NCBI GenBank assembly: GCA_964464035.1 | Contig: CAYXEN010000007.1 | Location: forward strand, 868 to 64,867 | Origin: an uncultured bacterium | GTDB lineage: Bacteria > Krumholzibacteriota > Krumholzibacteriia > WVZY01 | DNA: 64,000 bases | Direction of reading: 5' to 3' | Part shown: piece after piece, positions 4,613-60,345 of the stretch | How the letters are laid out: each line of letters starts with the position of its first letter | How positions within the stretch are numbered: position 1 is the first letter of the stretch | Made by a program: the position numbers and the translations under genes | Notes under the pieces: generated by a model | Told to the model about the DNA's origin: nothing | Databases searched by the model: none | The model's input: only the letters and a program-made list of their open reading frames with translations

Positions 4613-6420
4613 GGCGTTGGATCCTTGGCGGGGCGCCACCTCCCCGGATTGACCTGGCCGGGGTTGGAAAGGAGCACCGCGTTGATCAAAGTTCCGTAAC
4701 GTGCATAGTACGCCTGAAGCGTATCGCGCGTCATGATCTCGTGGGTGTTTTCAATGGTTTCGCCGGGGGGGATCACCTGATGGCCTCTCCTCCCGGCGAG
4801 AGTCTTGAAAGCCTCCCTCGCCGAGACGAGGTGCGAGATATCGCCCTCCTCGGGTTTTCGCGCGAGGGCCACGTCCTCTTCGACGTCGAGCAGGAAGGCG
4901 CTGTCGGCACGGGGTGCCAGCCGCAGGAGGATCCCGGGGACGGCGGGCACTTTTTCGATCGGACGGCCGGAGGCGACGGCGAAGTCGACGATCGCATCCT
5001 CCACGTAGCGATCGCAGATCACCACCCTGCCCAGCAGCAAGTGCATCCTCGTCTTGACTGCGTATACCCATGCGACGTCCAGCGTCAAGATGGCCGCGTA
5101 CAGAAAGCGCATCAGCGGATTGGCCAGCATCCGGCGCCGGTAGCGTACCTTCCCGGCCTCCGTATCATCGCCGGCCTCGCCGGCTGCGGCTCTTCGCGTT
5201 AACTTCTTGGCCGCCGAAGTGAGAAAAGACATCAACCGGGACGAACCGCCGCGATACCATATGGTCGTCACCCGAAGATCGCACTTTTTCACGGCCCTCA
5301 GCAGCAGCTCCGCCTGCACGGTCTTGCCGCTGCCGTCGCACCCACTCAAGCTCACGAGCCAAGGCTTCTGGCTCTTGATCCTCATCTTCCACCTGACCGC
5401 CCATAGAAAGGTCTTGATCCAGTCGGCAGCGCGGGTGGAAAAGCGTCGAGAGGGATCGATCGAGATCTTGTGATAGTAAGCGGCCTTGTCGGCCAGGAAA
5501 GGGATCCGGGCCGGAATCCCCTCCATGTAAGTGACCCGTTCGAGAATGGCCGAGTTGAAGAACCTCTTGCCTTCGAGGGCCTTCTCCAGCCGCTCCCTGC
5601 CGTCACCTTCGATGAAACCGCTGCCGAAGAGATTCGACCACGCATCGTCGAACACGAGGAGGGCGGCGTGAAATCCTTGCTCCCATCCCATGGCGCGGGC
5701 ATCCACGGCGGCATCGAGGAAGGTCCCGCCCGAATCGGACAGGGCCTTGGCCGTGAGATACAAGTTCGACAGGTTCAGCTCCTTGTCCTCGTAAAACCAG
5801 TGGGCAAGGGTTATCAATAGGCTCTCGCGCGGGCCGGGAATCGAGACGCCTTCGTCGTCCGGCGCCTTCTGTTTCGAGGCCCAGACTTTCTCCCCGGCAA
5901 CGAACGGGACGCCCCAGCCTATTTCCTCGTGGAGGTGCAGGGTATAGCTGGTTTCGTCGCCCGCGAAGCGGCGAAAGAGGAACTTCCCCGGTTCCTCCGT
6001 GTTGATGAGCTCGACGTACCCGTTTTCATGAAGCAGTTTCCTCGCATCGTCCCCCCTCTCCCGTTCCACGAGCACATCCAGGTTGCTGCTCAAGTGGGGA
6101 AACGAGGGATAGAGTCCCGTCGACTTGATGAGTATCGTCTCGATGCCTTCCGCCGCGAACGCTCTTTTCACCCGCTCGAACTCGCGGCGCAGCTTCTCGA
6201 ACAATTCAGCTTCATGCGAGAGTCGATCCCCGAAGAGCCCTCGCACGGCGTCCTCGCCGTAGCGATCCGCCAGTGAAAGAAAGGACACCTTGTTTCGCTG
6301 GAGCGCCGCGGCCACCAGGGAGGCTGTTTCCATACCGACCTTTTCGAGGCACGGCTCCCCCCACGGATTCGACACCGCCGCCGCCAGCCTGAGAATCTCC
6401 TGTTCAAGAGGCATCTTCAT
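4609..6420 (-). CDS. fusion protein: N-terminal PF14907-type uncharacterised nucleotidyltransferase domain plus C-terminal thymidylate-kinase-like P-loop domain
   Basis: The N-terminal half carries SNLDVLVERE…YTLHLHEEI motifs typical of the NTP_transf_5 family. The C-terminal half has the P-loop LSGCDGSGKT and ICDRYVEDAIVDFA (Tmk-like DRY motif). Length is 603 aa. Confidence 0.6.
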   Translation of the reverse strand: MKMPLEQEILRLAAAVSNPWGEPCLEKVGMETASLVAAALQRNKVSFLSLADRYGEDAVRGLFGDRLSHEAELFEKLRREFERVKRAFAAEGIETILIKSTGLYPSFPHLSSNLDVLVERERGDDARKLLHENGYVELINTEEPGKFLFRRFAGDETSYTLHLHEEIGWGVPFVAGEKVWASKQKAPDDEGVSIPGPRESLLITLAHWFYEDKELNLSNLYLTAKALSDSGGTFLDAAVDARAMGWEQGFHAALLVFDDAWSNLFGSGFIEGDGRERLEKALEGKRFFNSAILERVTYMEGIPARIPFLADKAAYYHKISIDPSRRFSTRAADWIKTFLWAVRWKMRIKSQKPWLVSLSGCDGSGKTVQAELLLRAVKKCDLRVTTIWYRGGSSRLMSFLTSAAKKLTRRAAAGEAGDDTEAGKVRYRRRMLANPLMRFLYAAILTLDVAWVYAVKTRMHLLLGRVVICDRYVEDAIVDFAVASGRPIEKVPAVPGILLRLAPRADSAFLLDVEEDVALARKPEEGDISHLVSAREAFKTLAGRRGHQVIPPGETIENTHEIMTRDTLQAYYARYGTLINAVLLSNPGQVNPGRWRPAKDPTP

Positions 6421-7456
6421 CTTCCAGCTTTTCGAGCAACCTCGACGCCACGCTCTTCCATGTGAAATCTTCGAGATCCCTTATCTCCGGTCGCGGCGAT
6501 TTCCTGATCGCTTCGCTTCTCTCCCTGAGCTCGCCGCGATCGGACCAGTAGAGCAAGTCCGGTCCCTCGGGCAGGAAGTCGCGCAAGCCGCCGAACGGAG
6601 TGGCGAGAACCGGCAGCCCCGAGGCCAGCGCCTCGAGAACGCCCAGGGGGAACTCGATGCACCCTTCGGTGTCTTCGACCGGGAAGACGTAGCAATCCGC
6701 CATGCGCAGGTACTCCTCGACCTTTACGTATTCCCTTATGACCCGGATGCCGATCGCTTCCAGTTCCGAGCGCAGGCTCGCATCCTCGGGAGTGCTGGTG
6801 CTGCCTATCACGATCACCCCGGCTCCCGGTTGTTCGGCAAGCGCGCCGAGGGCGAGCAGGTTTCTCTTCCTGCTGATGTGCCCTACGTGAAGATACAGGA
6901 AAGTCCCCTCATCGATTCCGTGACGAGCGCGCAGCTCTGCGCGTTCCTCTCCGCGGGGAGGCCGGAAACACTCCGGGTCGACTCCCGGCGGAACGGCTTC
7001 GCCCCGAAGGCCCATGCGCTCGAAGTACAGGAGAGTCGCGTAGGAGGGAACGAATATGAGATCGGGGGCGGTGAGCCTGAGATAGGGCCTCCAGATCCTG
7101 CCGTGTTTTCTCGGGATCATCGCCACCATCGCCGATTTGGCTCTCGGAACGTGCCTGCGCAACGCCGCCGCCCGGAAGAAGCTGGCCTGGGTCGATGAAG
7201 GAGAAGGAACGTAAAGGACGAAGTCGGGATCGAACGCCCTCAGTCGACCGCGAAGCTCCGAAGAGAGAAAGGTTCTCGATCCCCCGACCCGCTCCGCGGC
7301 CTTCCCATCCACACCGCTCCGATCCACGTTCAGGAGGAGAACCGGCATCTCGCCGCGAAGAGCCTCGGCGACCGAGAAAGTGTATTTCTTGATTCCTTCA
7401 TCCCACGGTTCGGCCAGGTCTTCCGATATCACCGCTATCTTTTTTTCGCCATGCAT
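6404..7456 (-). CDS. glycosyltransferase family 1 (GT4)
   Basis: GT4-like N- and C-domains with a C-terminal E…E motif region; 350 aa. The start overlaps the end of the downstream gene. Confidence 0.8.
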   Translation of the reverse strand: MHGEKKIAVISEDLAEPWDEGIKKYTFSVAEALRGEMPVLLLNVDRSGVDGKAAERVGGSRTFLSSELRGRLRAFDPDFVLYVPSPSSTQASFFRAAALRRHVPRAKSAMVAMIPRKHGRIWRPYLRLTAPDLIFVPSYATLLYFERMGLRGEAVPPGVDPECFRPPRGEERAELRARHGIDEGTFLYLHVGHISRKRNLLALGALAEQPGAGVIVIGSTSTPEDASLRSELEAIGIRVIREYVKVEEYLRMADCYVFPVEDTEGCIEFPLGVLEALASGLPVLATPFGGLRDFLPEGPDLLYWSDRGELRERSEAIRKSPRPEIRDLEDFTWKSVASRLLEKLEDEDAS

Positions 7457-35425: not shown

Positions 35426-36274
35426 ATGACGGAGACAAAGAGTCTTCACCTCACCGATTCGCAGTTCGAGCTTTTCAAGGAACTCGTAAAGCGCGAATGC
35501 GGCATCGAGCTCAAGGAATCCAAACGCGCCGTTTTCGTGCATCGCCTGACCAAGAGAATCCGGGAAAAAGGGCTGAGCTCCTTTGCCGAGTATTACGACT
35601 ACGTGATGAACCCGCTTGCCGGAAAAATCGAGATGGATTACCTCCTGGACGCCATAACGACGAACAAGACTTCCTTCTTCCGTGAAGAAGACCACTTCAT
35701 CTTCATGCAAAACGTCATCCTTCCCATCATGGAGCAAAGACGGCTTGCGAACCCCAACTTTTTCCTTAGGATTTGGTGCGCCGGGTGCTCCTCCGGTGAA
35801 GAGGCGTATTCCATCGCCATGACGTTGATCGAGTATTTCGGGCGCTTCCGGCCCAACGAGGGAAGGATCCTGGCCACGGACCTCTCGGAAAAGTCGATCG
35901 CCAAGGCCCTGAGCGGAACCTACAGGCGGAAAGACATCTCCGGGCTATCGAGTGTCAGGCGCAGGGCTTTCTTCGAAAGAATCGAGGAGAACGGAGAAGT
36001 CTATTACAGCGTGAGCAAGTACGTCAGAAACCTGATTGAGTTCCACCGTTTCAATCTTGTCGGCCGCGCGTACCCGTTCCGTCACAAGTTCGATATCATC
36101 TTTTGCAGGAACGTTCTCATGTTTCTCGACATCGAATCGAAAAAGAAGATCATACAGAGGTTCTACGACAATCTCAAAGTGGGCGGCTACTTCATAACGG
36201 GAATGGCGGAAAACTATTCCCGCCTGCATCCCGGCTTCACCCAGCTGAAGAACTCGATCTTCTTGAAAGAATAG
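35426..36274 (+). CDS. cheR: chemotaxis protein methyltransferase CheR
   Basis: CheR N-terminal all-alpha domain plus the SAM-methyltransferase motif IWCAGCSSGEEAYSIA. Confidence 0.85.
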   Translation: MTETKSLHLTDSQFELFKELVKRECGIELKESKRAVFVHRLTKRIREKGLSSFAEYYDYVMNPLAGKIEMDYLLDAITTNKTSFFREEDHFIFMQNVILPIMEQRRLANPNFFLRIWCAGCSSGEEAYSIAMTLIEYFGRFRPNEGRILATDLSEKSIAKALSGTYRRKDISGLSSVRRRAFFERIEENGEVYYSVSKYVRNLIEFHRFNLVGRAYPFRHKFDIIFCRNVLMFLDIESKKKIIQRFYDNLKVGGYFITGMAENYSRLHPGFTQLKNSIFLKE

Positions 36275-48187: not shown

Positions 48188-48775
48188 TCAAACACCCGAC
48201 TTGGTCTTGATGGCCTCCAGCTTGTCGTCGACGAGGGCGATGAGACGATCCACGTTGCGCCGGCTTATGGTCAGGAGCCTCGCTTCCATCTCCGGTAATT
48301 TGTTCATCTCGGCGCACAAGCCGTCCAAGGCCAGCTTCAAAGAAGTAAGCGGCGTGCGGATATCATGGGAGAGTTGCTCGAGGTAATCCATCCCGCCCGC
48401 GGTCTCGTTGCCCCCTTCACCGAGCTTCAGCTCGATGGCTTCCGTAAGAAGGGTCAGATCCTTGAGGGGCTTTCTGAAAACCCTCGTGACTCCGATGGAC
48501 CGGGCTCTTTCTTCCAACTCGGCCGTGACGTTCGCCGACATCAGGAAGACGGGAACGGAAGGATAGACATCCTTCATCATCGAAGCGAGTTCCAAACCGT
48601 TCATGCCGGGCATGTTGACGTCGGACAGGACGATGGAGGGGGATTTTCGCTCGAGAACGGGGATTACTTCCTTCGGCGAGCAGAAGCTCTTCACTTCGAA
48701 CCCCTGCCTTCGCAGGTATCGGCTCAGGACTTCCCGCATCGAGCGATCGTCTTCCAAGAGGAATATTTCTTTCAT
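48188..48775 (-). CDS. response-regulator receiver domain fused to a HisKA-like dimerisation/phosphoacceptor domain (no ATPase domain)
   Basis: REC motifs (LLEDD…SDVNMPGMNG…K) followed by the H-box LSHDIRTPLTSL. SD GGAGGG precedes the ATG at 48775. Confidence 0.7.
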   Translation of the reverse strand: MKEIFLLEDDRSMREVLSRYLRRQGFEVKSFCSPKEVIPVLERKSPSIVLSDVNMPGMNGLELASMMKDVYPSVPVFLMSANVTAELEERARSIGVTRVFRKPLKDLTLLTEAIELKLGEGGNETAGGMDYLEQLSHDIRTPLTSLKLALDGLCAEMNKLPEMEARLLTISRRNVDRLIALVDDKLEAIKTKSGV

Positions 48776-48885
48776 TTTCCCTCCACCCCGGCGCCCGCAA
48801 TGGGCCGCCTGGTGCAATAACCTGATGTCTCATCCACAGAGCAAAGGGTGTTTCAACGATGCCAAAGGCAATCTCCATGCCATGG

Positions 48886-53696: not shown

Positions 53697-56075
53697 TCAA
53701 CGCAGGAGAACCAGTTTCTTGACCTGCACGCGGTCCCCGGCGGCGGCCCTGAGGAAATAGATTCCGGAAGAGACCGTTTCCCCGCGGTCGTTCCTGCCGT
53801 CCCAACTGGTCGTAACGACCGTCGAGCGAAGTTCATCCCTGTACACGATCTTCACGAGCCTTCCCGTCACGTCGTATATCCTCACGTCCACCCGGGTCGG
53901 AACCTCCTCCACCAAGGACGCCGATCGCCCCATCCCCCGAGAACCGCCCGTGGGCGGTCCGGTCTCGCGATAGCTTGGAGGGATGAAAATCGAAAAGCTC
54001 GTGGACCCGCTGAACGGGTTGGGAACGGCGTTCGAAACCAGCTCGCCGCTGTGCATCGGGAGCATCGCCGTTACCTCGACGGTTCCCGAGTCCATGGTGA
54101 AAACCTTCGTGCCGCCGTGAAAGTCAAGCCCGAAAGTCCCCCGCACGAAATAGCGATATTTCGTACCCGGAGTGACCGTGGTGTCGGTGAACTCGTACGG
54201 CGTGTAACCGTCACCCGCCACGCCGGACGGGTGAAGACCCGAGACGATGAGCGTGTCCTCGCCGGGCGAAACGGCCACCCTGTAGAGATCGAAGCGGGCT
54301 CCGAAAGTCTCGCCGAACATCCTCCATTCGAGGGTTATGCCCCGGTTCGCGACCTTGACTTCGAAGAGAGAATACTTCAGGCCGAGATTGTAGATTCTCT
54401 TCGTTATCACTCCGGAGGATATGCCCACCCTGGTTCGGACCTTGATTCCCACTTCCGTGAGCCCCACCGGAATCGATTTCAATTTCACGACCAGGTCCTC
54501 TTCCGGCTCGTCCCACTTTCCGTCTTCCGGCGTGAGAATGATGTTTCCCGAACCGCTCACACTGAGAAACCCGTCCTGGAGAGGGGCCGCGTAGTCGATG
54601 CGCGTTTCTTCGGGTTGGGCGGGATTGCGGTTCTCGACCGGCACGGACACCGCCTTGCATCTGACCGTGACGTCCGAAGCGAGCAGCGTCTCCGCGCTGG
54701 AATTCTCGAAGATGACGGTGGGCGTAGATTGGTAGAGATCCGGCACGCTGTTGTCGTCCGCATCCACCACGCCCATCATGCCCGCGGTGAAAAAGCAGAT
54801 GGGTCTTCCCAGGTCCTGTTTCGCCTGGGCCATGATGCAGTAATCCAGGTCCCTGCAACCCGTTGGACGTCCGTATGGGTCGACTTCGAGTATCTTGTTC
54901 TTGTTGTAGTAATCCAAGTAGCCGGAATGGGCGTTGCAATCTCCTATCGCCGACTTATACTCGTCTAGGGCCCAAAATATATGGCAAGTCTCGTGTTGAA
55001 ACACCTGCGAGAAGAGAAGGACCTGGTCGATGCCGTACGGATTGCTTCCCGCCGGGTAGGGGATCACGAGATAAGGGCCTCCCAGATATGCATAGGCCGT
55101 GTAGCGGGCATCCTTGAACAGATGGCCGGGAGCGTTGGCGCTGTTGGCCACGAAGGCGGTGAAAACCCAGTTCGTTCCGTAGTGTTTCCTCCCGTCCTCG
55201 TTGAACTCGTGCACTATCAATATGGGATCGCCCTTGCTCACGTCGTAACCCATGTTGGCCATCACGTCGTTTATCCAGACGTGGTCCGAATCGTCGTTGT
55301 GATCGATCGGTTCGAACTGGGTTCTCGCCCTTTGGAACAAACGAAAGGTGAGGTCGATGGGGTAGATCGAGTACTCCTCCTGGAAGTCGAGCATTGCTGA
55401 GTATACGCCGCTTATCGCATCAGAGAGCCGGGCGTCACTCCAATTTTCTTCGCCGCCGTCGCTCTCCGGAAAGATCACCTGCACTAGTATCTCGCCCATC
55501 ATGAACTCGCTGTTCTGGCTGGGATTGCGCATGACCTCGCCCGGGGACGAAGCGGCCGCCTGCGGTTTCCATTTCTTCATGACGCGCACGGGCACGCGGA
55601 GAACCTTGTCCGAAAACCCCGGATCCTCCGGTGGAATCCCCGGCTCGTGTGCTTTCGCATCGACGGATGCTCTCGGCGAATACGCCCTTCCGATCTCCCT
55701 CAATCCCGGGAAGAATCGAGAATCGGAGCCCGGGCCCGCCGCCTTGTCGAGCACCCCGGGCAATAGTTCCATGCCCTCGGCGGCCGCGAGCGCCGCTTCG
55801 CTCACCCCCTCGGGCAAATCACACACGATATACGAAGGGAGAAAGGCGTTCACGTGCACCGCTCCCGCATCCAGGAGCCTGGCCTTGAAGGCCAGGAGAT
55901 CCTTCTCCGTTCCTCCCCGGTTGAAAAAAACCGCGCGGTGATAATTCATCCCGCGCACCGGAATATTCCCCGTGTGTTCCAGCACGCCCACGCGACGGGC
56001 CGTCGTCACCGTCGCAGGGAGTGAAAAGACGGCGACCAGGCCGAACAACAAGGACCTCGCGAGCAGCGTTCTCAT
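53697..56075 (-). CDS. secreted HExxH zinc metalloprotease (metzincin-like spacing with Asp third ligand, possibly M6/InhA-like) with C-terminal T9SS-type sorting domain
   Basis: The start at MRTLLARSLLFGLVAVFSLPA (signal peptide) has SD GGAGG and overlaps the stop of the upstream gene (ATGA). Motif QHETCHIFWALDEY. The C-terminus SGIYFLRAAAGDRVQVKKLVLLR is near-identical to the M14 protein tail. Confidence 0.6.
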   Translation of the reverse strand: MRTLLARSLLFGLVAVFSLPATVTTARRVGVLEHTGNIPVRGMNYHRAVFFNRGGTEKDLLAFKARLLDAGAVHVNAFLPSYIVCDLPEGVSEAALAAAEGMELLPGVLDKAAGPGSDSRFFPGLREIGRAYSPRASVDAKAHEPGIPPEDPGFSDKVLRVPVRVMKKWKPQAAASSPGEVMRNPSQNSEFMMGEILVQVIFPESDGGEENWSDARLSDAISGVYSAMLDFQEEYSIYPIDLTFRLFQRARTQFEPIDHNDDSDHVWINDVMANMGYDVSKGDPILIVHEFNEDGRKHYGTNWVFTAFVANSANAPGHLFKDARYTAYAYLGGPYLVIPYPAGSNPYGIDQVLLFSQVFQHETCHIFWALDEYKSAIGDCNAHSGYLDYYNKNKILEVDPYGRPTGCRDLDYCIMAQAKQDLGRPICFFTAGMMGVVDADDNSVPDLYQSTPTVIFENSSAETLLASDVTVRCKAVSVPVENRNPAQPEETRIDYAAPLQDGFLSVSGSGNIILTPEDGKWDEPEEDLVVKLKSIPVGLTEVGIKVRTRVGISSGVITKRIYNLGLKYSLFEVKVANRGITLEWRMFGETFGARFDLYRVAVSPGEDTLIVSGLHPSGVAGDGYTPYEFTDTTVTPGTKYRYFVRGTFGLDFHGGTKVFTMDSGTVEVTAMLPMHSGELVSNAVPNPFSGSTSFSIFIPPSYRETGPPTGGSRGMGRSASLVEEVPTRVDVRIYDVTGRLVKIVYRDELRSTVVTTSWDGRNDRGETVSSGIYFLRAAAGDRVQVKKLVLLR

Positions 56076-56923
56076 CTCTTGCCTCCCCGCCCGGCGAACA
56101 GCGAACGGGCTCCCGATCCGAAGTCGATCAGCAGGAGCTCCGTTTCGGATTTCCTGACTCCGGCCACGGGAACACCCGGTATCGGCGGATCGATCTTCGA
56201 TTCCCTCGAGCAGCGGGATACGTAGCGCACGATATGAAACAGCGGAACCGCGCCGGCAAAGTAGATCTCGTGCACGTCGTCCACGCGCTTCAGCAAAGTC
56301 GACCGTCCCGCGGGGACTTTCTTCTCGTACGCTACGTGTTTCATCTTCTTCACACACCTGAAATCCCTCCCGGCGGCCCGCACCGAAGCTTTGCCCCCAT
56401 CCTCCCAAAGATCCCGGCGCCCTTTGCTCAACTCACTCTCGAGTCGGCCCACGAGCTCCTCGTCTCCGCTTTCGATCGGTCCGCTTCCATGTTTGATGAA
56501 GATCTCCAGCACGCGGGCCCCGGTGGAGTCCGCCGGATCGCCGGAGCGGACCGCATCCGACATGAGAACGCGCATGGCTAGTGTATCGCCGTGCCGTTCC
56601 TTTCCCTCGATCTCCAGCCAGAAACTTCCCGGCGACGGAGGATCTGAATCGCCGGGGATCGCTATGTACAGCTCCGATGAATCCCGCCTCGTCTCCGAGG
56701 ATTCCACCACGAGGTAGCGGCACCAGGCCCCCGCGGTAAGGCTCATTCCCTCGAACGCGATCGCCGGTATCAGGAGATCGTCCTCCGAGGAGGAGGCAGC
56801 GGCGGCAGGCGATACCGTGCCGACAAGAGAGATCGCATGGAAAACGAGCAGGACGACGGGAAATGCCCGTCGGGCGGTTGCGTGCTCGAAGGGTGACCGG
56901 ATCTTCTTCCCCTTCAATCTCAT
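56072..56923 (-). CDS. hypothetical secreted protein, translationally coupled to the downstream metalloprotease
   Basis: Signal peptide after MRLKGKK. Its stop overlaps the metalloprotease start. No recognisable domain. Confidence 0.45.
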   Translation of the reverse strand: MRLKGKKIRSPFEHATARRAFPVVLLVFHAISLVGTVSPAAAASSSEDDLLIPAIAFEGMSLTAGAWCRYLVVESSETRRDSSELYIAIPGDSDPPSPGSFWLEIEGKERHGDTLAMRVLMSDAVRSGDPADSTGARVLEIFIKHGSGPIESGDEELVGRLESELSKGRRDLWEDGGKASVRAAGRDFRCVKKMKHVAYEKKVPAGRSTLLKRVDDVHEIYFAGAVPLFHIVRYVSRCSRESKIDPPIPGVPVAGVRKSETELLLIDFGSGARSLFAGRGGKR

Positions 56924-57005: not shown

Positions 57006-58403
57006 TCAATGGGCTATCTTCCGCCAGGCCCTGGAAAAGTCGAATGTGGGGTCTTGTTCCTTAGTATGGCACTGCGTGCAACTCTCCGAGGCGCGGGAGG
57101 CGTAGGTGCCGTCCCTCTTGTGCTCCGCCCCCGGCCCGTGGCACGCCTCGCACTGGACCTCGACCAGATCAACGGGAGAGCCGATGATGCGTGATCCCGT
57201 GTATCCCCCGCGCTTGCCGTAACCCGTCGAGTGGCACGAGATACAGCTCGAATCACGCTGCTTGAATTGCGAGGCCAGGGTTTCGTACGCCCTGGCGTGT
57301 TTGGTGCCCGCGTAGATCCGGAAAGCGTCCGCGTGGCATCGGATGCAGTTGCCCAGGCCCAGGTAGATGTCACCGGGCCCGGCGTTGGAGGTGTTGCCCT
57401 TGAGCATCTGCTTGGCATAGAGTTCTTTCTGCTTCTTCTTGTTCTCTTCGTCGAAACTCTTGATGATGGCGGCCACCCGCTCGTCGTCGGGCACCCTCTT
57501 GTTAAGTGTATATATGTTGTTCCTCGTATCGGCGATCTTGCCTTCGGGGTCGAGCGCCACGCGCAGGACACCGACCGCCTGCCCGTGGAAGGTAACCTTG
57601 TAGACCGGCACGGTCCCCATCATGTACGGTTCCTTGGTTCTCTCCGTCTTGTCGCCGTGCCCCAGAACGGCGAAATCGAACTGCGGGAAGTCGGGGAGAA
57701 TCTTCTCCAGATCCTCCCTGTCCATGTGCGCGAGAAGTACCAGGATGTCGCATTTCCGGCGGACCTCGGGCACCAGCTTTTCGAGTATCGGGGCCGGATC
57801 CTTCAGCACGTAAGTGAGGGCTTCGACTTTCTTCGCGCTCCCGCGCCGCGGATTCCTCACCTTGGTGCGGGGGGAGAGAACGGCTATGAAACCTATCTTG
57901 ATCCCCCCGCGCGAGACGATTCTGTACGGAGGGAAGACCGGCTTCCGGCTCACGACGGTTTTCCCGCCCTTTCCCGCCTTCTTGCGGAACAAGTTCGCGC
58001 AGACGAGATTCAGTTTGTTTTTCTTGTAATCGGCGTAGAGCTTGTCGAGGCCTCGGCTCAGGTCCATTTCGCCGACGGCCACCGCATCGTAGCGGAGATA
58101 TGCAAGCATGCGGGCCACGAAATGGTCCTTCGGCTCGTTGTAGACGTTCCCCCCGCCGAAGAAATCACCGGCGGAACAGAGGACGAGGAAGCCGGAGAAG
58201 TCCGACTGCTCCTGCAATTGCTTTATCAGGGTCGCCCGCCGGGCGAAGCCGCCAGTGGCGTTGGCGTGTCACCCGCAAGGCTGATAATAGCCTCTCGTAT
58301 CGCTGTTGTACACCAGCTGAAAAGATCTGTATCCGGATCCGGTCTTGGGCGGAATGCATCCCGCGAAGAGCGCGGCCAGCACGAGGGCAAACGCGATTCT
58401 CAT
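57006..58403 (-). CDS. candidate selenoprotein: lipoprotein with degenerate calcineurin-like metallophosphoesterase domain fused to a C-terminal tetraheme cytochrome c domain, in-frame UGA in a C-G-U motif
   Basis: ATG at 58403 with SD GGGAG. Translation gives MRIAFALVLAALFAGCIPPKTGSGYRSFQLVYNSDTRGYYQPCG-TGA-HANATGGFARRATLIKQL-QEQSDFSGFLVLCSAGDFFGGGN…, continuous with ORF 57006..58217. Four CxxCH motifs are present (CIRCH, CISCH, CEACH, CTQCH). The only signal peptide is upstream of the TGA. Confidence 0.55.
58269..58271 (-). other. in-frame TGA (putative selenocysteine codon) within the 57006..58403 gene; GC-rich hairpin candidates lie immediately downstream (about 58215..58265)
   Basis: Frame continuity was checked codon by codon. 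The TGA sits 44 codons after the ATG and 18 codons before the ORF-track start. Confidence 0.5.
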
Positions 58404-58585
58404 ATTCGGGAACTCCCACTATAAAGCCGTCATCGATTTAACCTTCTGATTTATAAGCAAGATATCATATCGTCCGCCGCCGGGCAAGCATTGATTCCGG
58501 AGCGCGGGGCCCGGGAGGACGGCCCCGGCCACCGGAAAAAGAACTGAAATGTTCCTAAAGCCGGCCTCCAAATCCTCCGATAAGC

Positions 58586-58605
58586 AAAAAAAGCCCGCCG
58601 GGCTT
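58586..58605 (-). terminator. orphan terminator-like hairpin (minus-strand RNA AAGCCCGGCGGGCUU followed by UUUUUUU) in the divergent region between the selenoprotein gene and the MCP gene
   Basis: Six-bp GC stem with a 3-nt loop and seven U residues. No annotated gene lies upstream of it on the minus strand. Confidence 0.35.
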
Positions 58606-58670
58606 GAATTTGGGAACGGGCGGCGGATTTCGCACGCCCGGCAGTTGTATCGCCGAACCGGGAAGGACCA

Positions 58671-60299
58671 TTGATAATCCGAACCAAGCACATAGCCACC
58701 AGGCTTTTTATCCTGCTCGCCCCGTTCACGCTCGTTGCATTCGGCATCTACACCTTCATAGAAATCGGCCTGGTGAACAAGAACTTGACCGAAGTCTTGG
58801 TCAACGACGTCTACAATGCCGGCAGCGGGCTGGAACGCTCTTTCGAGAAAGAGATGGTTCACGGGAAAGGTTACGAGCTTTCGGAAATGGTCGATGATAT
58901 ATGCGAAGGGTTTTCGCTGAACGACGTGGATATCTACACGCCGAACGGCGAGCTCAAAGCTTCGACTGATTCGCTTCTTTCGACCAGGCAGCGCACCTCC
59001 GCCGAGCCACTCTGTTCCAACTGCCACGATCCGGAGATGAAACAAAAACCCATCCTCGGTGAGCGCAGGACGGTCATCGAGAAGGATGCCAAGGGGGACA
59101 AGGTTCTGAACCTCCTCTATCACGTACCCAACAAGCCCGATTGTTTCAACGCGGATTGCCACGTGCATTCCCCCGACAACAAGTTCAACGGTGTGATAGT
59201 CGTCAAAGCTTCGCTCGTGCCGATCAGGGCCATGACCGCACAAATAAGGAACAAGCTCATAATCGCGGCGATCATAATGATCACTCTCACCAGCTTCCTG
59301 GCGAGCTTTCTCATAAATAGAGTGCTCAGGCATCCCATGAAGCAACTTCTGGAAGGAGTGGAAACACTATCCTCGGGCAACCTCAAGGCGAGGATCAACC
59401 TGACGGACGAGCAGGACGACGGAAACAAGAACACGACGCTCGTCGAACGGCTGATCGCGGGAGGCAAGGAGGACGAACTGGCAAGCCTGGCCGATGCCTT
59501 CAACTCGATGAGCGCAAATCTCGAGCGAATACTATCCAGCATACGTGAGGTGAGCCTGCGCATAACGACGGCGGGCGAGGAACTGAGCGCAGCGTCCGAG
59601 CAACAGGCCCAGGAGAGCAGGATTCAGTATGCCAAGATATCCGAGTCCATAAATGCGGCCCTCAAGTTGAGCAAGCAGGCTGAAAACATCGCTGAATCGA
59701 TAAAGACAATCGAAGAATCGGCCGAGAAGACCCTCTCCGGAATGAAGGCGATGAAACACATCGTGGAAGGCTCGTCCCGCCAGATCGAGGACCTCGGCGA
59801 CGAGATGCAGAAAATCATCAAGATCGCCGAGTTGATCCACAGCATAGCCGACGAGACCAACCTCCTTGCGCTCAACGCGGCGATAGAGGCCGCCCATGCC
59901 GGTGAGCACGGTGCCGGCTTCGCCGTAGTCGCAGACGAGGTCAGGCGCCTTGCCGACAGGACGACCGACGCGGCCAGAGAGATAACGACGACGATAAGTA
60001 TCATTCACGGTGAAGTGAAAGCTACAATCCAGGACACGAACAACACCGTCAAAGAAGTGGCGGAGAAGGCCGACCTGGCCAGCAAGACTTCCTCTCTGTT
60101 CAAGCACATAAGCCAAAGCGTCAAGGAGCAGCTGGATGCGAGCAAGCACATCGAAGAAGCACTCAAGGAGGCAAACGACATAATCGAGCAATTCGCCGCC
60201 GGAGCCCAGCAGACATCCGAGGCGTCGGACGAACTCATGACTCTTGCTCTCAAACTCCAGTCTTTGTCCGAAGAATTCAAACTGGTCGAGATCCAATAG
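58671..60299 (+). CDS. methyl-accepting chemotaxis protein with periplasmic sensor domain carrying two c-type heme binding motifs
   Basis: TTG start with SD GGGAAGGA. TM1, a periplasmic region with CSNCH and CFNADCH (two CxxCH), TM2, HAMP, and an MCP signalling domain ([31 protein letters not shown]). Confidence 0.8.
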
Positions 60300-60302
60300 G
60301 AA

Positions 60303-60345
60303 AGCGGGACTCGAAGGTCCCGCTCTCCTTGATTCTTTCTTCCGA
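60303..60345 (+). terminator. Rho-independent terminator (bidirectional candidate) between the MCP gene and hup
   Basis: Stem AGCGGGAC / GUCCCGCU with loop UCGAAG followed by a U-rich tail CUCCUUGAUUCUUUCUUCC. The reverse strand also shows a U-rich run after the hairpin. Confidence 0.5.

Follow-up and report, generated by a model that had tools for sequence, protein, structure and literature searches.

Near the end of a 64,000-nucleotide stretch of DNA from an uncultured bacterium of the Krumholzibacteriota (contig CAYXEN010000007.1, assembly GCA_964464035.1; the whole stretch is called the window below) lies a gene for a methyl-accepting chemotaxis protein (MCP), at 58671..60299 on the plus strand, whose periplasmic sensor domain carries two motifs for covalent attachment of haem c. 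The gene is flanked by a convergent HU gene and by a divergent gene for a UshA-like selenoprotein that has haem motifs of its own. We describe here the architecture of the receptor, the conservation and probable fold of its sensor, and the extent to which the receptor and the selenoprotein can be regarded as a pair.

The chemoreceptor gene and its membrane topology

The longest reading frame at this position starts with TTG and encodes 542 residues; NCBI and JGI both hold the identical 542-residue protein (P0001 and P0268). A Pfam scan of the protein matched the MCP signalling domain PF00015 (MCPsignal) with E=4.3e-34 (118 bits, cut-off 34.6) and a HAMP domain with E=1.2e-06. With the two transmembrane segments described next, these matches bear out the assignment of the open reading frame (ORF) as an MCP in the preliminary description, which had been made by a model from the letters of the sequence.

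Kyte-Doolittle windows above 1.6 place the first transmembrane segment (TM1) at residues ~12–34 (58704..58772), preceded by a basic N-terminus, and a hydropathy peak marks the second (TM2) at residues ~195–217 (59253..59321). Basic residues are found at the cytoplasmic sides of both hydrophobic segments. From the position of the two segments, residues ~35–195 are therefore periplasmic, and the sensor domain is assigned to residues ~35–194, about 160 residues (58773..59252). TM2 leads into the HAMP domain at residues 215–285 (59313..59525), the connector of which has an acidic insertion of about 20 residues (residues ~238–262, window 59380..59450) that is absent from the closest MCP relative, P0002. 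The signalling domain, with its hairpin tip, follows and is covered by the Pfam match from residue 362 to residue 516 (59754..60218). The topology of the protein is TM1, periplasmic sensor, TM2, HAMP and MCP signalling domain, all encoded on the plus strand.

Haem-attachment motifs of the sensor domain

The preliminary description reported two CxxCH motifs between TM1 and TM2. Both motifs are there, the second being CX4CH and not CxxCH. Motif 1 is C115-S-N-C118-H119 (CXXCH; 59013..59027) and motif 2 is C158-FNAD-C163-H164-V-H166 (CX4CH-x-H; 59142..59168). A third element of interest is Met62 (58854..58856), a nearly invariant residue that aligns with Met60 of the Geobacter sensor GSU0935 and is a candidate distal ligand to a haem. 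A six-frame examination of the window (stop-to-stop segments of at least 80 residues) found CX2-4CH motifs only in the MCP and in the neighbouring ORF.

An exhaustive phmmer search of 1.84 billion representatives, with the sensor alone as query and E<=1e-3, gave 137 homologues with 22–33% identity. Non-conservation of the motifs in orthologues had been named in advance as an outcome that would speak against a haem sensor; both motifs are in fact kept in 125 of these 137 distant homologues. The separation of the motifs ranges from 37 to 45 residues, the commonest value, 43, being that of our protein, and among the 125 two-motif homologues the second motif has the CX4CH form in 119 and the trailing CH-x-H in 115. 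Invariant columns in an alignment of 51 sequences (alignment A2) are C115, C118, H119, N154, C158, C163, H164, H166 and G174, while M62, G93 and S98 are at least 90% conserved. The MCP has every invariant column of this di-haem subfamily, in which ~38–40 residues separate CXXCH from CX4CH-x-H, including N154, H166 and G174. Since the motifs are conserved in distant homologues and rare in the window, chance does not explain their presence.

Other searches returned little. A word-indexed search with the sensor alone gave nothing at E<=1e-3, and a word-indexed profile search with alignment A2 gave only 10 short matches. When metagenomes were scanned with the MCP aligned to its closest relative, 80 generic MCP loci with 24–41% identity were retrieved, among them no orthologue, none of the source contigs and no di-haem MCP. 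Scans of Pfam and NCBIfam found no dedicated model for the di-haem subfamily.

Fold of the sensor domain

The AlphaFold2 model of the periplasmic domain, built on the family alignment, has a mean predicted local distance difference test score (pLDDT) of 86.3 and a predicted template modelling score (pTM) of 0.81. It consists of a long N-terminal helix, on which Met62 lies, a second helix and a five-stranded sheet. Between strands 2 and 3 an inserted short helix contains CSNCH, and another, immediately ahead of the last strand, contains CX4CH. Foldseek matches of the model in the PDB were the single-Cache (sCache) domain of WalK (TM-score 0.65–0.72), KinD, GSU0935 (3b42), DctB, Tlp3 and CitA. 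No 4HB_MCP or TarH (four-helix bundle, 4HB) match was found by Pfam, and the sheet of the model is not that of a helical bundle. A multihaem-cytochrome fold was also considered for the sensor and rejected, as no Pfam cytochrome family matches it and the modelled fold is Cache-like.

According to the preliminary description the haem motifs replace a Cache or 4HB ligand-binding fold, and a confident standard Cache model lacking haem was to count against a haem sensor. The first statement was right with respect to the helical bundle and wrong with respect to Cache, as both the model and the Foldseek matches are Cache/PAS-like. The structure prediction did give a confident Cache-like model, but Cache versus haem is a false dichotomy: as modelled, the haem motifs of the periplasmic domain are borne by a Cache/PAS-like fold and do not take its place. 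A recent preprint (Deshpande et al. 2026, PMC12889525) likewise reclassified GSU0582, GSU0935 and the DUF3365 domains as 'sCache_heme' on fold grounds.

The relation to the Geobacter haem sensors became visible at the level of the family. The family profile matched 3b42 (GSU0935) with E=2.4e-08 and 3b47 (GSU0582) with E=1.8e-06, so that the comparison proposed in the preliminary description had a positive outcome. The profile alignment (chain offset 34) equates M62 with Met60, C158 with Cys140, C163 with Cys143 and H164 with His144, in the numbering of PMC8396549. The CQSCH haem site of 3b42 and 3b47 is thereby aligned with the CX4CH motif, and the region of motif 1 (C115–H119) is absent from GSU0935 and GSU0582. 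Structural alignments give ~13–16% identity between our sensor and the solved haem-sensor structures. The Pfam family PF21563 (Mcp40H-20_sensor) is matched by 40 of the 51 family sensors (E<=0.01); the periplasmic region of our MCP, scanned by itself, has no significant Pfam match. On the strength of the conserved motifs and histidines and of the homology to haem-binding Geobacter MCP sensors, the domain is very probably a covalent c-type haem sensor, in agreement with what had been proposed for it earlier.

Output domains and gene neighbourhoods of the family

The sensor is seldom found on chemoreceptors. Histidine kinases of the HAMP-HisKA-HATPase type account for 68 of the 75 full-length relatives, and an MCP output occurs in one of the 75 full-length representatives, our protein alone. 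The kinase cores of the family are AtoS/ZraS-like. We infer that the di-haem sensor is a module whose usual carriers are NtrB-type histidine kinases and which is here joined to an MCP output.

A second receptor of related design is P0099, a metagenomic MCP (loci L008 and L009) with two CXXCH motifs in its periplasmic domain. Its comparison with the family profile gave an hhalign probability of 91% and E=1e-06, with an alignment that spans both motifs and the CH-x-H. It differs from our MCP in that both of its motifs are CXXCH and in a larger insertion before motif 1. Its genomic position is different as well: the gene begins 4 bp downstream of genes for the large and small subunits of a NiFe-hydrogenase (L008 191..4432; L009 1..3198), whereas our MCP adjoins the UshA-like gene. 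This suggests that P0099 is a hydrogenase-coupled chemoreceptor for hydrogen or redox taxis.

Other members of the family have comparable neighbours. A 292-residue member without an output domain adjoins a 9-haem cytochrome gene (L002–L004, 2434..5879). On L007 (3051..11626) a histidine kinase with the di-haem sensor is encoded, together with a sigma54 response regulator, between NrfD/4Fe-4S genes and a multihaem ORF of at least 810 residues with 25 CXXCH motifs, and a further member lies near NADH-dehydrogenase-type genes (L005). From the 9-haem cytochrome, NrfD/4Fe-4S and NADH-dehydrogenase-type neighbours we conclude that the sensor family is generally tied to respiratory modules.

Signalling output of the receptor

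Taken together, the results make it probable that the protein is a transmembrane chemoreceptor with a single-Cache (PAS-like) periplasmic module bearing two predicted covalent c-type haems, for which we propose a function in redox, energy or gas taxis. Several observations weigh against this assignment. As a single sequence, the sensor found nothing in the PDB by phmmer up to E=10, its match to PF21563 (19.5 bits, E=0.0012) falls below the 27-bit gathering threshold, and its identity to its nearest relatives is only 22–29%. On the output side, the hairpin tip (residues ~404–443, window 59880..60000) deviates from the canonical EAARAGExGRGF, having His for Arg and Ala for the second Arg, and there is no CheA or CheW gene within the 64-kb window.

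The last two points belong to the alternative that has fared best, namely that the receptor does not serve swimming at all and instead signals into a Che-like pathway that controls something else, for instance twitching, biofilm formation or gene expression, or that it is a decaying orphan. The His/Ala combination at the tip is common only to our MCP and P0002 among the ~93 top MCP matches with a readable tip, and the atypical tip means that the output may be a non-flagellar Che-like pathway. The insertion in the HAMP connector points in the same direction, and so does the gene content of the window, where CheB, CheY and flagellar genes are missing in addition to CheA and CheW and the only che gene is an orphan cheR; a window of 64 kb is, however, no proof that che genes are absent from the genome. 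Against this alternative stand the intact reading frame, the well-conserved signalling domain, the methylation consensus and the presence of the CheR gene. Retention of the tip variant in a second genome, by a protein only 43% identical overall, moreover implies purifying selection. We regard the non-swimming alternative in its two forms as rather unlikely.

With regard to adaptation, the MCP has one full consensus methylation site, at residue 299, together with half-sites, and the CheR gene (35426..36274, plus strand; PF01739, E=2.4e-50) lies 22 kb from it; the two are consistent with adaptation. The CheR gene has no adjacent che genes, and the ORFs that flank it are without a Pfam match. Elsewhere in the window an ORF of 209 residues (48188..48817, minus strand) encodes a receiver followed by HisKA, with no ATPase domain within the ORF, and may be a truncated or split hybrid kinase.

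One haem or two

The assignment of two haems has an alternative of its own. Of the two sites, the second alone is aligned with a haem site proven by experiment. Motif 1 lies in an insertion of lower model confidence (block pLDDT 75–82), and three homologues (P0122, P0147 and P0167) do without it. The CX4CH motif might then be the sole haem site of a single-haem sensor, and the inserted CXXCH a structural disulphide or a metal (Zn/Fe) site. Motif 1 is, however, a canonical CXXCH complete with its histidine, invariant in the 51 aligned sequences and kept at 90% or more in the 75 full-length proteins, and it is predicted to lie in a short helix, as is typical of a haem-binding CXXCH. The invariant His166 would in addition be a spare axial ligand for which a one-haem domain has no need. 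The passages of published surveys that deal with such proteins count them as having two haem-binding motifs (PMC8396549; PMC3831638). We consider a single-haem sensor decidedly unlikely and treat the domain below as a predicted di-haem sensor.

The neighbouring selenoprotein gene

The gene divergent from the MCP (57006..58403, minus strand) encodes a UshA-like protein with matches to NF041198 (E=6.5e-66) and to Cytochrome_C554 (E=3.8e-13). Its product has a signal peptide, a probable lipobox (LFAGC), a metallophosphoesterase core and a C-terminal tetrahaem domain with four CXXCH motifs. Since this neighbour has four such motifs, the genome must be able to mature c-type cytochromes. Codon 45 is an in-frame TGA (58269..58271), and the read-through translation, MRIAFALVLAALFAGC...YQPCG-TGA-HANATGG..., places it in a PCG-U motif. 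The NF041198 score of 223 bits was obtained for the 403-residue part after the TGA, and the cut-off of 275 refers to the full-length protein. The preliminary description called this gene a candidate selenocysteine-containing cytochrome lipoprotein. The in-frame TGA and the four CXXCH motifs are indeed present; the protein belongs to the already curated family NF041198, which is included as a UshA-like (seleno)protein family in recent selenoproteome reviews (PMC13188914), and so is no new candidate.

An orthologue with the same PCG-TGA is found in another uncultured bacterium (locus L001, ~5791..7185, plus strand). About 45 nucleotides after the TGA are nearly identical between the window and L001. 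Folding of this stretch gives a GC-rich hairpin at -23 to -24 kcal/mol, with z about -1.7 to -1.9, which would fit a bacterial selenocysteine insertion sequence (SECIS) element.

The intergenic regions

The spacer between the divergent gene starts is 267 bp long (58404..58670). This length, and the presence on its far side of a gene with four CXXCH motifs, are as previously stated and are confirmed by the coordinates and the read-through translation. A 13-nucleotide sequence, GATATGATATCTT, occurs in the spacer (~58458..58470, minus strand) and in L001 (5723..5735, plus strand), in both cases ~55–67 nucleotides upstream of the UshA-like start, while the two intergenic regions otherwise differ. 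The sequence may be a promoter or operator element of the selenoprotein gene. Scanned for sigma-70 promoters, the spacer gave no convincing candidate for either gene. Two weak promoter-like matches at 58261–58312 fall within the UshA-like coding region.

The spacer also contains a terminator-like hairpin on the minus strand, AAGCCCG-GCG-GGCTT followed by TTTTTGC (58591..58605, with the T-run extending to ~58581). It is situated 66 nucleotides upstream of the MCP start, and upstream of it there is no obvious minus-strand gene to terminate. It may be a relic of an HU terminator or an insulator of the UshA gene. At the other end of the MCP gene, the MCP and HU genes converge with 48 bp between them, and this gap holds a GC-rich hairpin, AGCGGGAC-CTTCGA-GTCCCGCT (60303..60324), which is likely to be a shared terminator of the two genes. 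This hairpin was read directly from the sequence; the consensus terminator scanner did not list it.

Gene order in related genomes

Two related loci bear on the question of whether the MCP and the UshA-like gene belong together. L001, in which the UshA-like protein is 63% identical and HU 87% identical to those of the window, has the order LptD, HU, UshA-like (with selenocysteine), DUF (a gene for a domain of unknown function), CBS and cystathionine lyase (CGL). There is no MCP between the HU and UshA-like genes of L001, and the gap there is only 183 bp. Orthologous LptD-HU-UshA blocks are found in CAZZKJ010000007.1 and JGI Ga0434945_017115. In L010 (HU 88% identical) an MCP, P0002, is found in the same position, convergent with HU and LptD. 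P0002 is the closest MCP relative of our protein, being 43% identical to it and having the same unusual hairpin tip. In the 33 visible periplasmic residues before its TM2, where CX4CH-x-H would be expected, P0002 has no Cys or His. The L010 contig ends inside the P0002 sensor, before any UshA gene is reached. That P0002 is an MCP without a sensor was considered and ruled out, as its ORF runs off the end of the contig.

The pairing of MCP and UshA-like genes is thus not conserved in one of the two related genomes: it is absent from L001, and in L010 the contig stops short of any UshA gene. The MCP at the LptD–HU locus is variable in its presence and apparently also in its type of sensor. Because L001 has the UshA-like gene without the MCP and keeps GATATGATATCTT, the promoter region of the UshA-like gene is independent of the MCP. 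As a separate observation, the window has, between the DUF and CBS genes, a gene for a 903-residue protein (53697..56408, minus strand) in which only a C-terminal FlgD_ig-like domain, possibly a sorting domain for secretion, was recognised. It is absent from the syntenic L001 and represents a second indel in the block.

The preliminary description proposed that the MCP and the UshA-like tetrahaem selenoprotein form one co-regulated module for redox sensing and extracytoplasmic electron transfer, and named divergent pairing in related genomes as a check; where this check could be made, in L001, its outcome was negative. In such a module the two proteins might also exchange electrons directly, so that the receptor would report the activity of the enzyme. 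The proposal draws on the divergent arrangement with 267 bp in between, on the fact that these are the sole two ORFs in 64 kb with haem-c motifs, and on the multihaem cytochrome or hydrogenase genes that lie close to further members of the family. Against this, L001 retains the LptD-HU-UshA(Sec)-DUF-CBS-CGL order without the MCP, and GATATGATATCTT stands equally far from the UshA-like ATG in both genomes. Within the spacer, a terminator-like hairpin lies on the strand of the UshA gene, and no shared operator or palindrome was identified. The lack of Cys and His in the visible periplasmic part of P0002 makes it seem that a di-haem sensor is no fixed feature of the locus. A co-regulated module is in our opinion improbable, and the simplest account of the location of the MCP beside the UshA-like gene is a gene placement that varies among lineages, not an obligatory functional pair.

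Discussion

A signal transduction mechanism can be proposed for the di-haem chemoreceptor by analogy with the Geobacter sensors. Haem B, attached at CX4CH and ligated proximally by His164, would be the counterpart of the Geobacter haem, and Met62 on the N-terminal helix may serve as its exchangeable distal ligand, as Met60 does in GSU0935. Haem A would be bound by the inserted CXXCH helix and have its proximal ligand in His119, and the invariant His166 is a possible sixth ligand. In such an arrangement haem B, with its His164/Met62 pair, would be the switch, and haem A might act as a redox relay or tune the redox potential. A redox change of the haem, or the binding of nitric oxide (NO) or carbon monoxide (CO), would displace or restore the distal ligand, and this exchange would shift the N-terminal helix, which runs on into TM1, as well as the C-terminal strand and helix, which run on into TM2. 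The signal would then pass through HAMP to the MCP hairpin and modulate a CheA-type kinase, with redox, energy or gas taxis as the result. A bolder version, in which the sensor is poised not by a free ligand but by direct electron exchange with the adjacent tetrahaem selenoprotein, the CXXCH haem being the entry wire and the Met-ligated CX4CH haem the conformational switch, appears to us very unlikely, although if true the cell would steer its swimming by how fast a specific extracytoplasmic (sulphur or selenium?) enzyme turns over, in a protein-to-receptor 'electron-wire' form of energy taxis.

The sensing of redox state or of gases, as suggested earlier for this protein, is documented behaviour of its relatives. 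In their oxidised state the sensor domains of GSU0582 and GSU0935 are high spin; in the reduced state Met60 is bound and they are low spin. Both bind CO and NO reversibly (PMC8396549), while sCache_haem domains fused to signalling modules act as NO sensors (PMC12889525). Like our sensor, those of GSU0582 and GSU0935 (3B47 and 3B42) from Geobacter sulfurreducens are periplasmic MCP domains between two transmembrane helices with a Cache/PAS-like fold and a haem-c motif on a short helix that immediately precedes the last strand, and the distal ligand Met60 of GSU0935 has its counterpart in Met62. They differ in having CXXCH where our protein has CX4CH-x-H, and in lacking the insertion of ~20–25 residues that contains the second, canonical CXXCH.

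The DUF3365/Tll0287 domains (sCache_haem, PF11845) are likewise extracytoplasmic c-type haem sensors on MCPs and kinases, responsive to NO or redox state. They are single-haem sensors, as opposed to the two motifs found here, and our MCP had no significant match to PF11845 in the Pfam scans. Many of its top MCP matches do carry PF11845, with a single CXXCH. Another extracytoplasmic c-type haem sensor with a single haem is DcrA of Desulfovibrio. To our knowledge, the periplasmic c-type haem sensors that have been studied (GSU0582, GSU0935, Tll0287 and the Pseudomonas sCache_haem proteins) are all single-haem, and we know of no biochemical characterisation of the two-motif proteins.

Proteins of the two-motif kind have been named in the literature for some time. 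GSU0599 (a sensor kinase), GSU0591 and the Anaeromyxobacter proteins Adeh_2011 and Adeh_3383 are given as two-motif members, with the signature CX2-4CH, in the passages of PMC8396549 and PMC3831638 that treat them; the source cited in PMC3831638 is Londer et al. 2006, and the mentions span papers from 2006 to 2021. As described there, they are signalling proteins with a periplasmic haem-PAS-like domain and one extra CX2-4CH, as is our MCP, and it is by these descriptions that we set it in their class. What distinguishes it is the MCP output, compared with the HAMP-HisKA-HATPase kinases that make up most of the 137 homologues of this kind. Our protein is a divergent representative of this known two-motif kind, with an MCP output that is uncommon, and does not form a new category.

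For the MCP at 58671..60299 itself, the gain lies chiefly in an improved annotation and in setting aside a gene pairing that had been over-interpreted. The wider interest lies in the family. Periplasmic c-type haem sensors are among the few known means by which bacteria read the extracytoplasmic redox state or NO. The alignments delimit within them a coherent and strongly conserved subfamily of predicted two-haem sensors, defined by CXXCH, CX4CH-x-H at a spacing of 43 and a conserved Met, which is carried mostly by NtrB-type kinases near respiratory gene clusters and occasionally by chemoreceptors. The second haem predicted for these sensors raises the question of whether it serves as an electron relay or widens the range of potentials that can be sensed.

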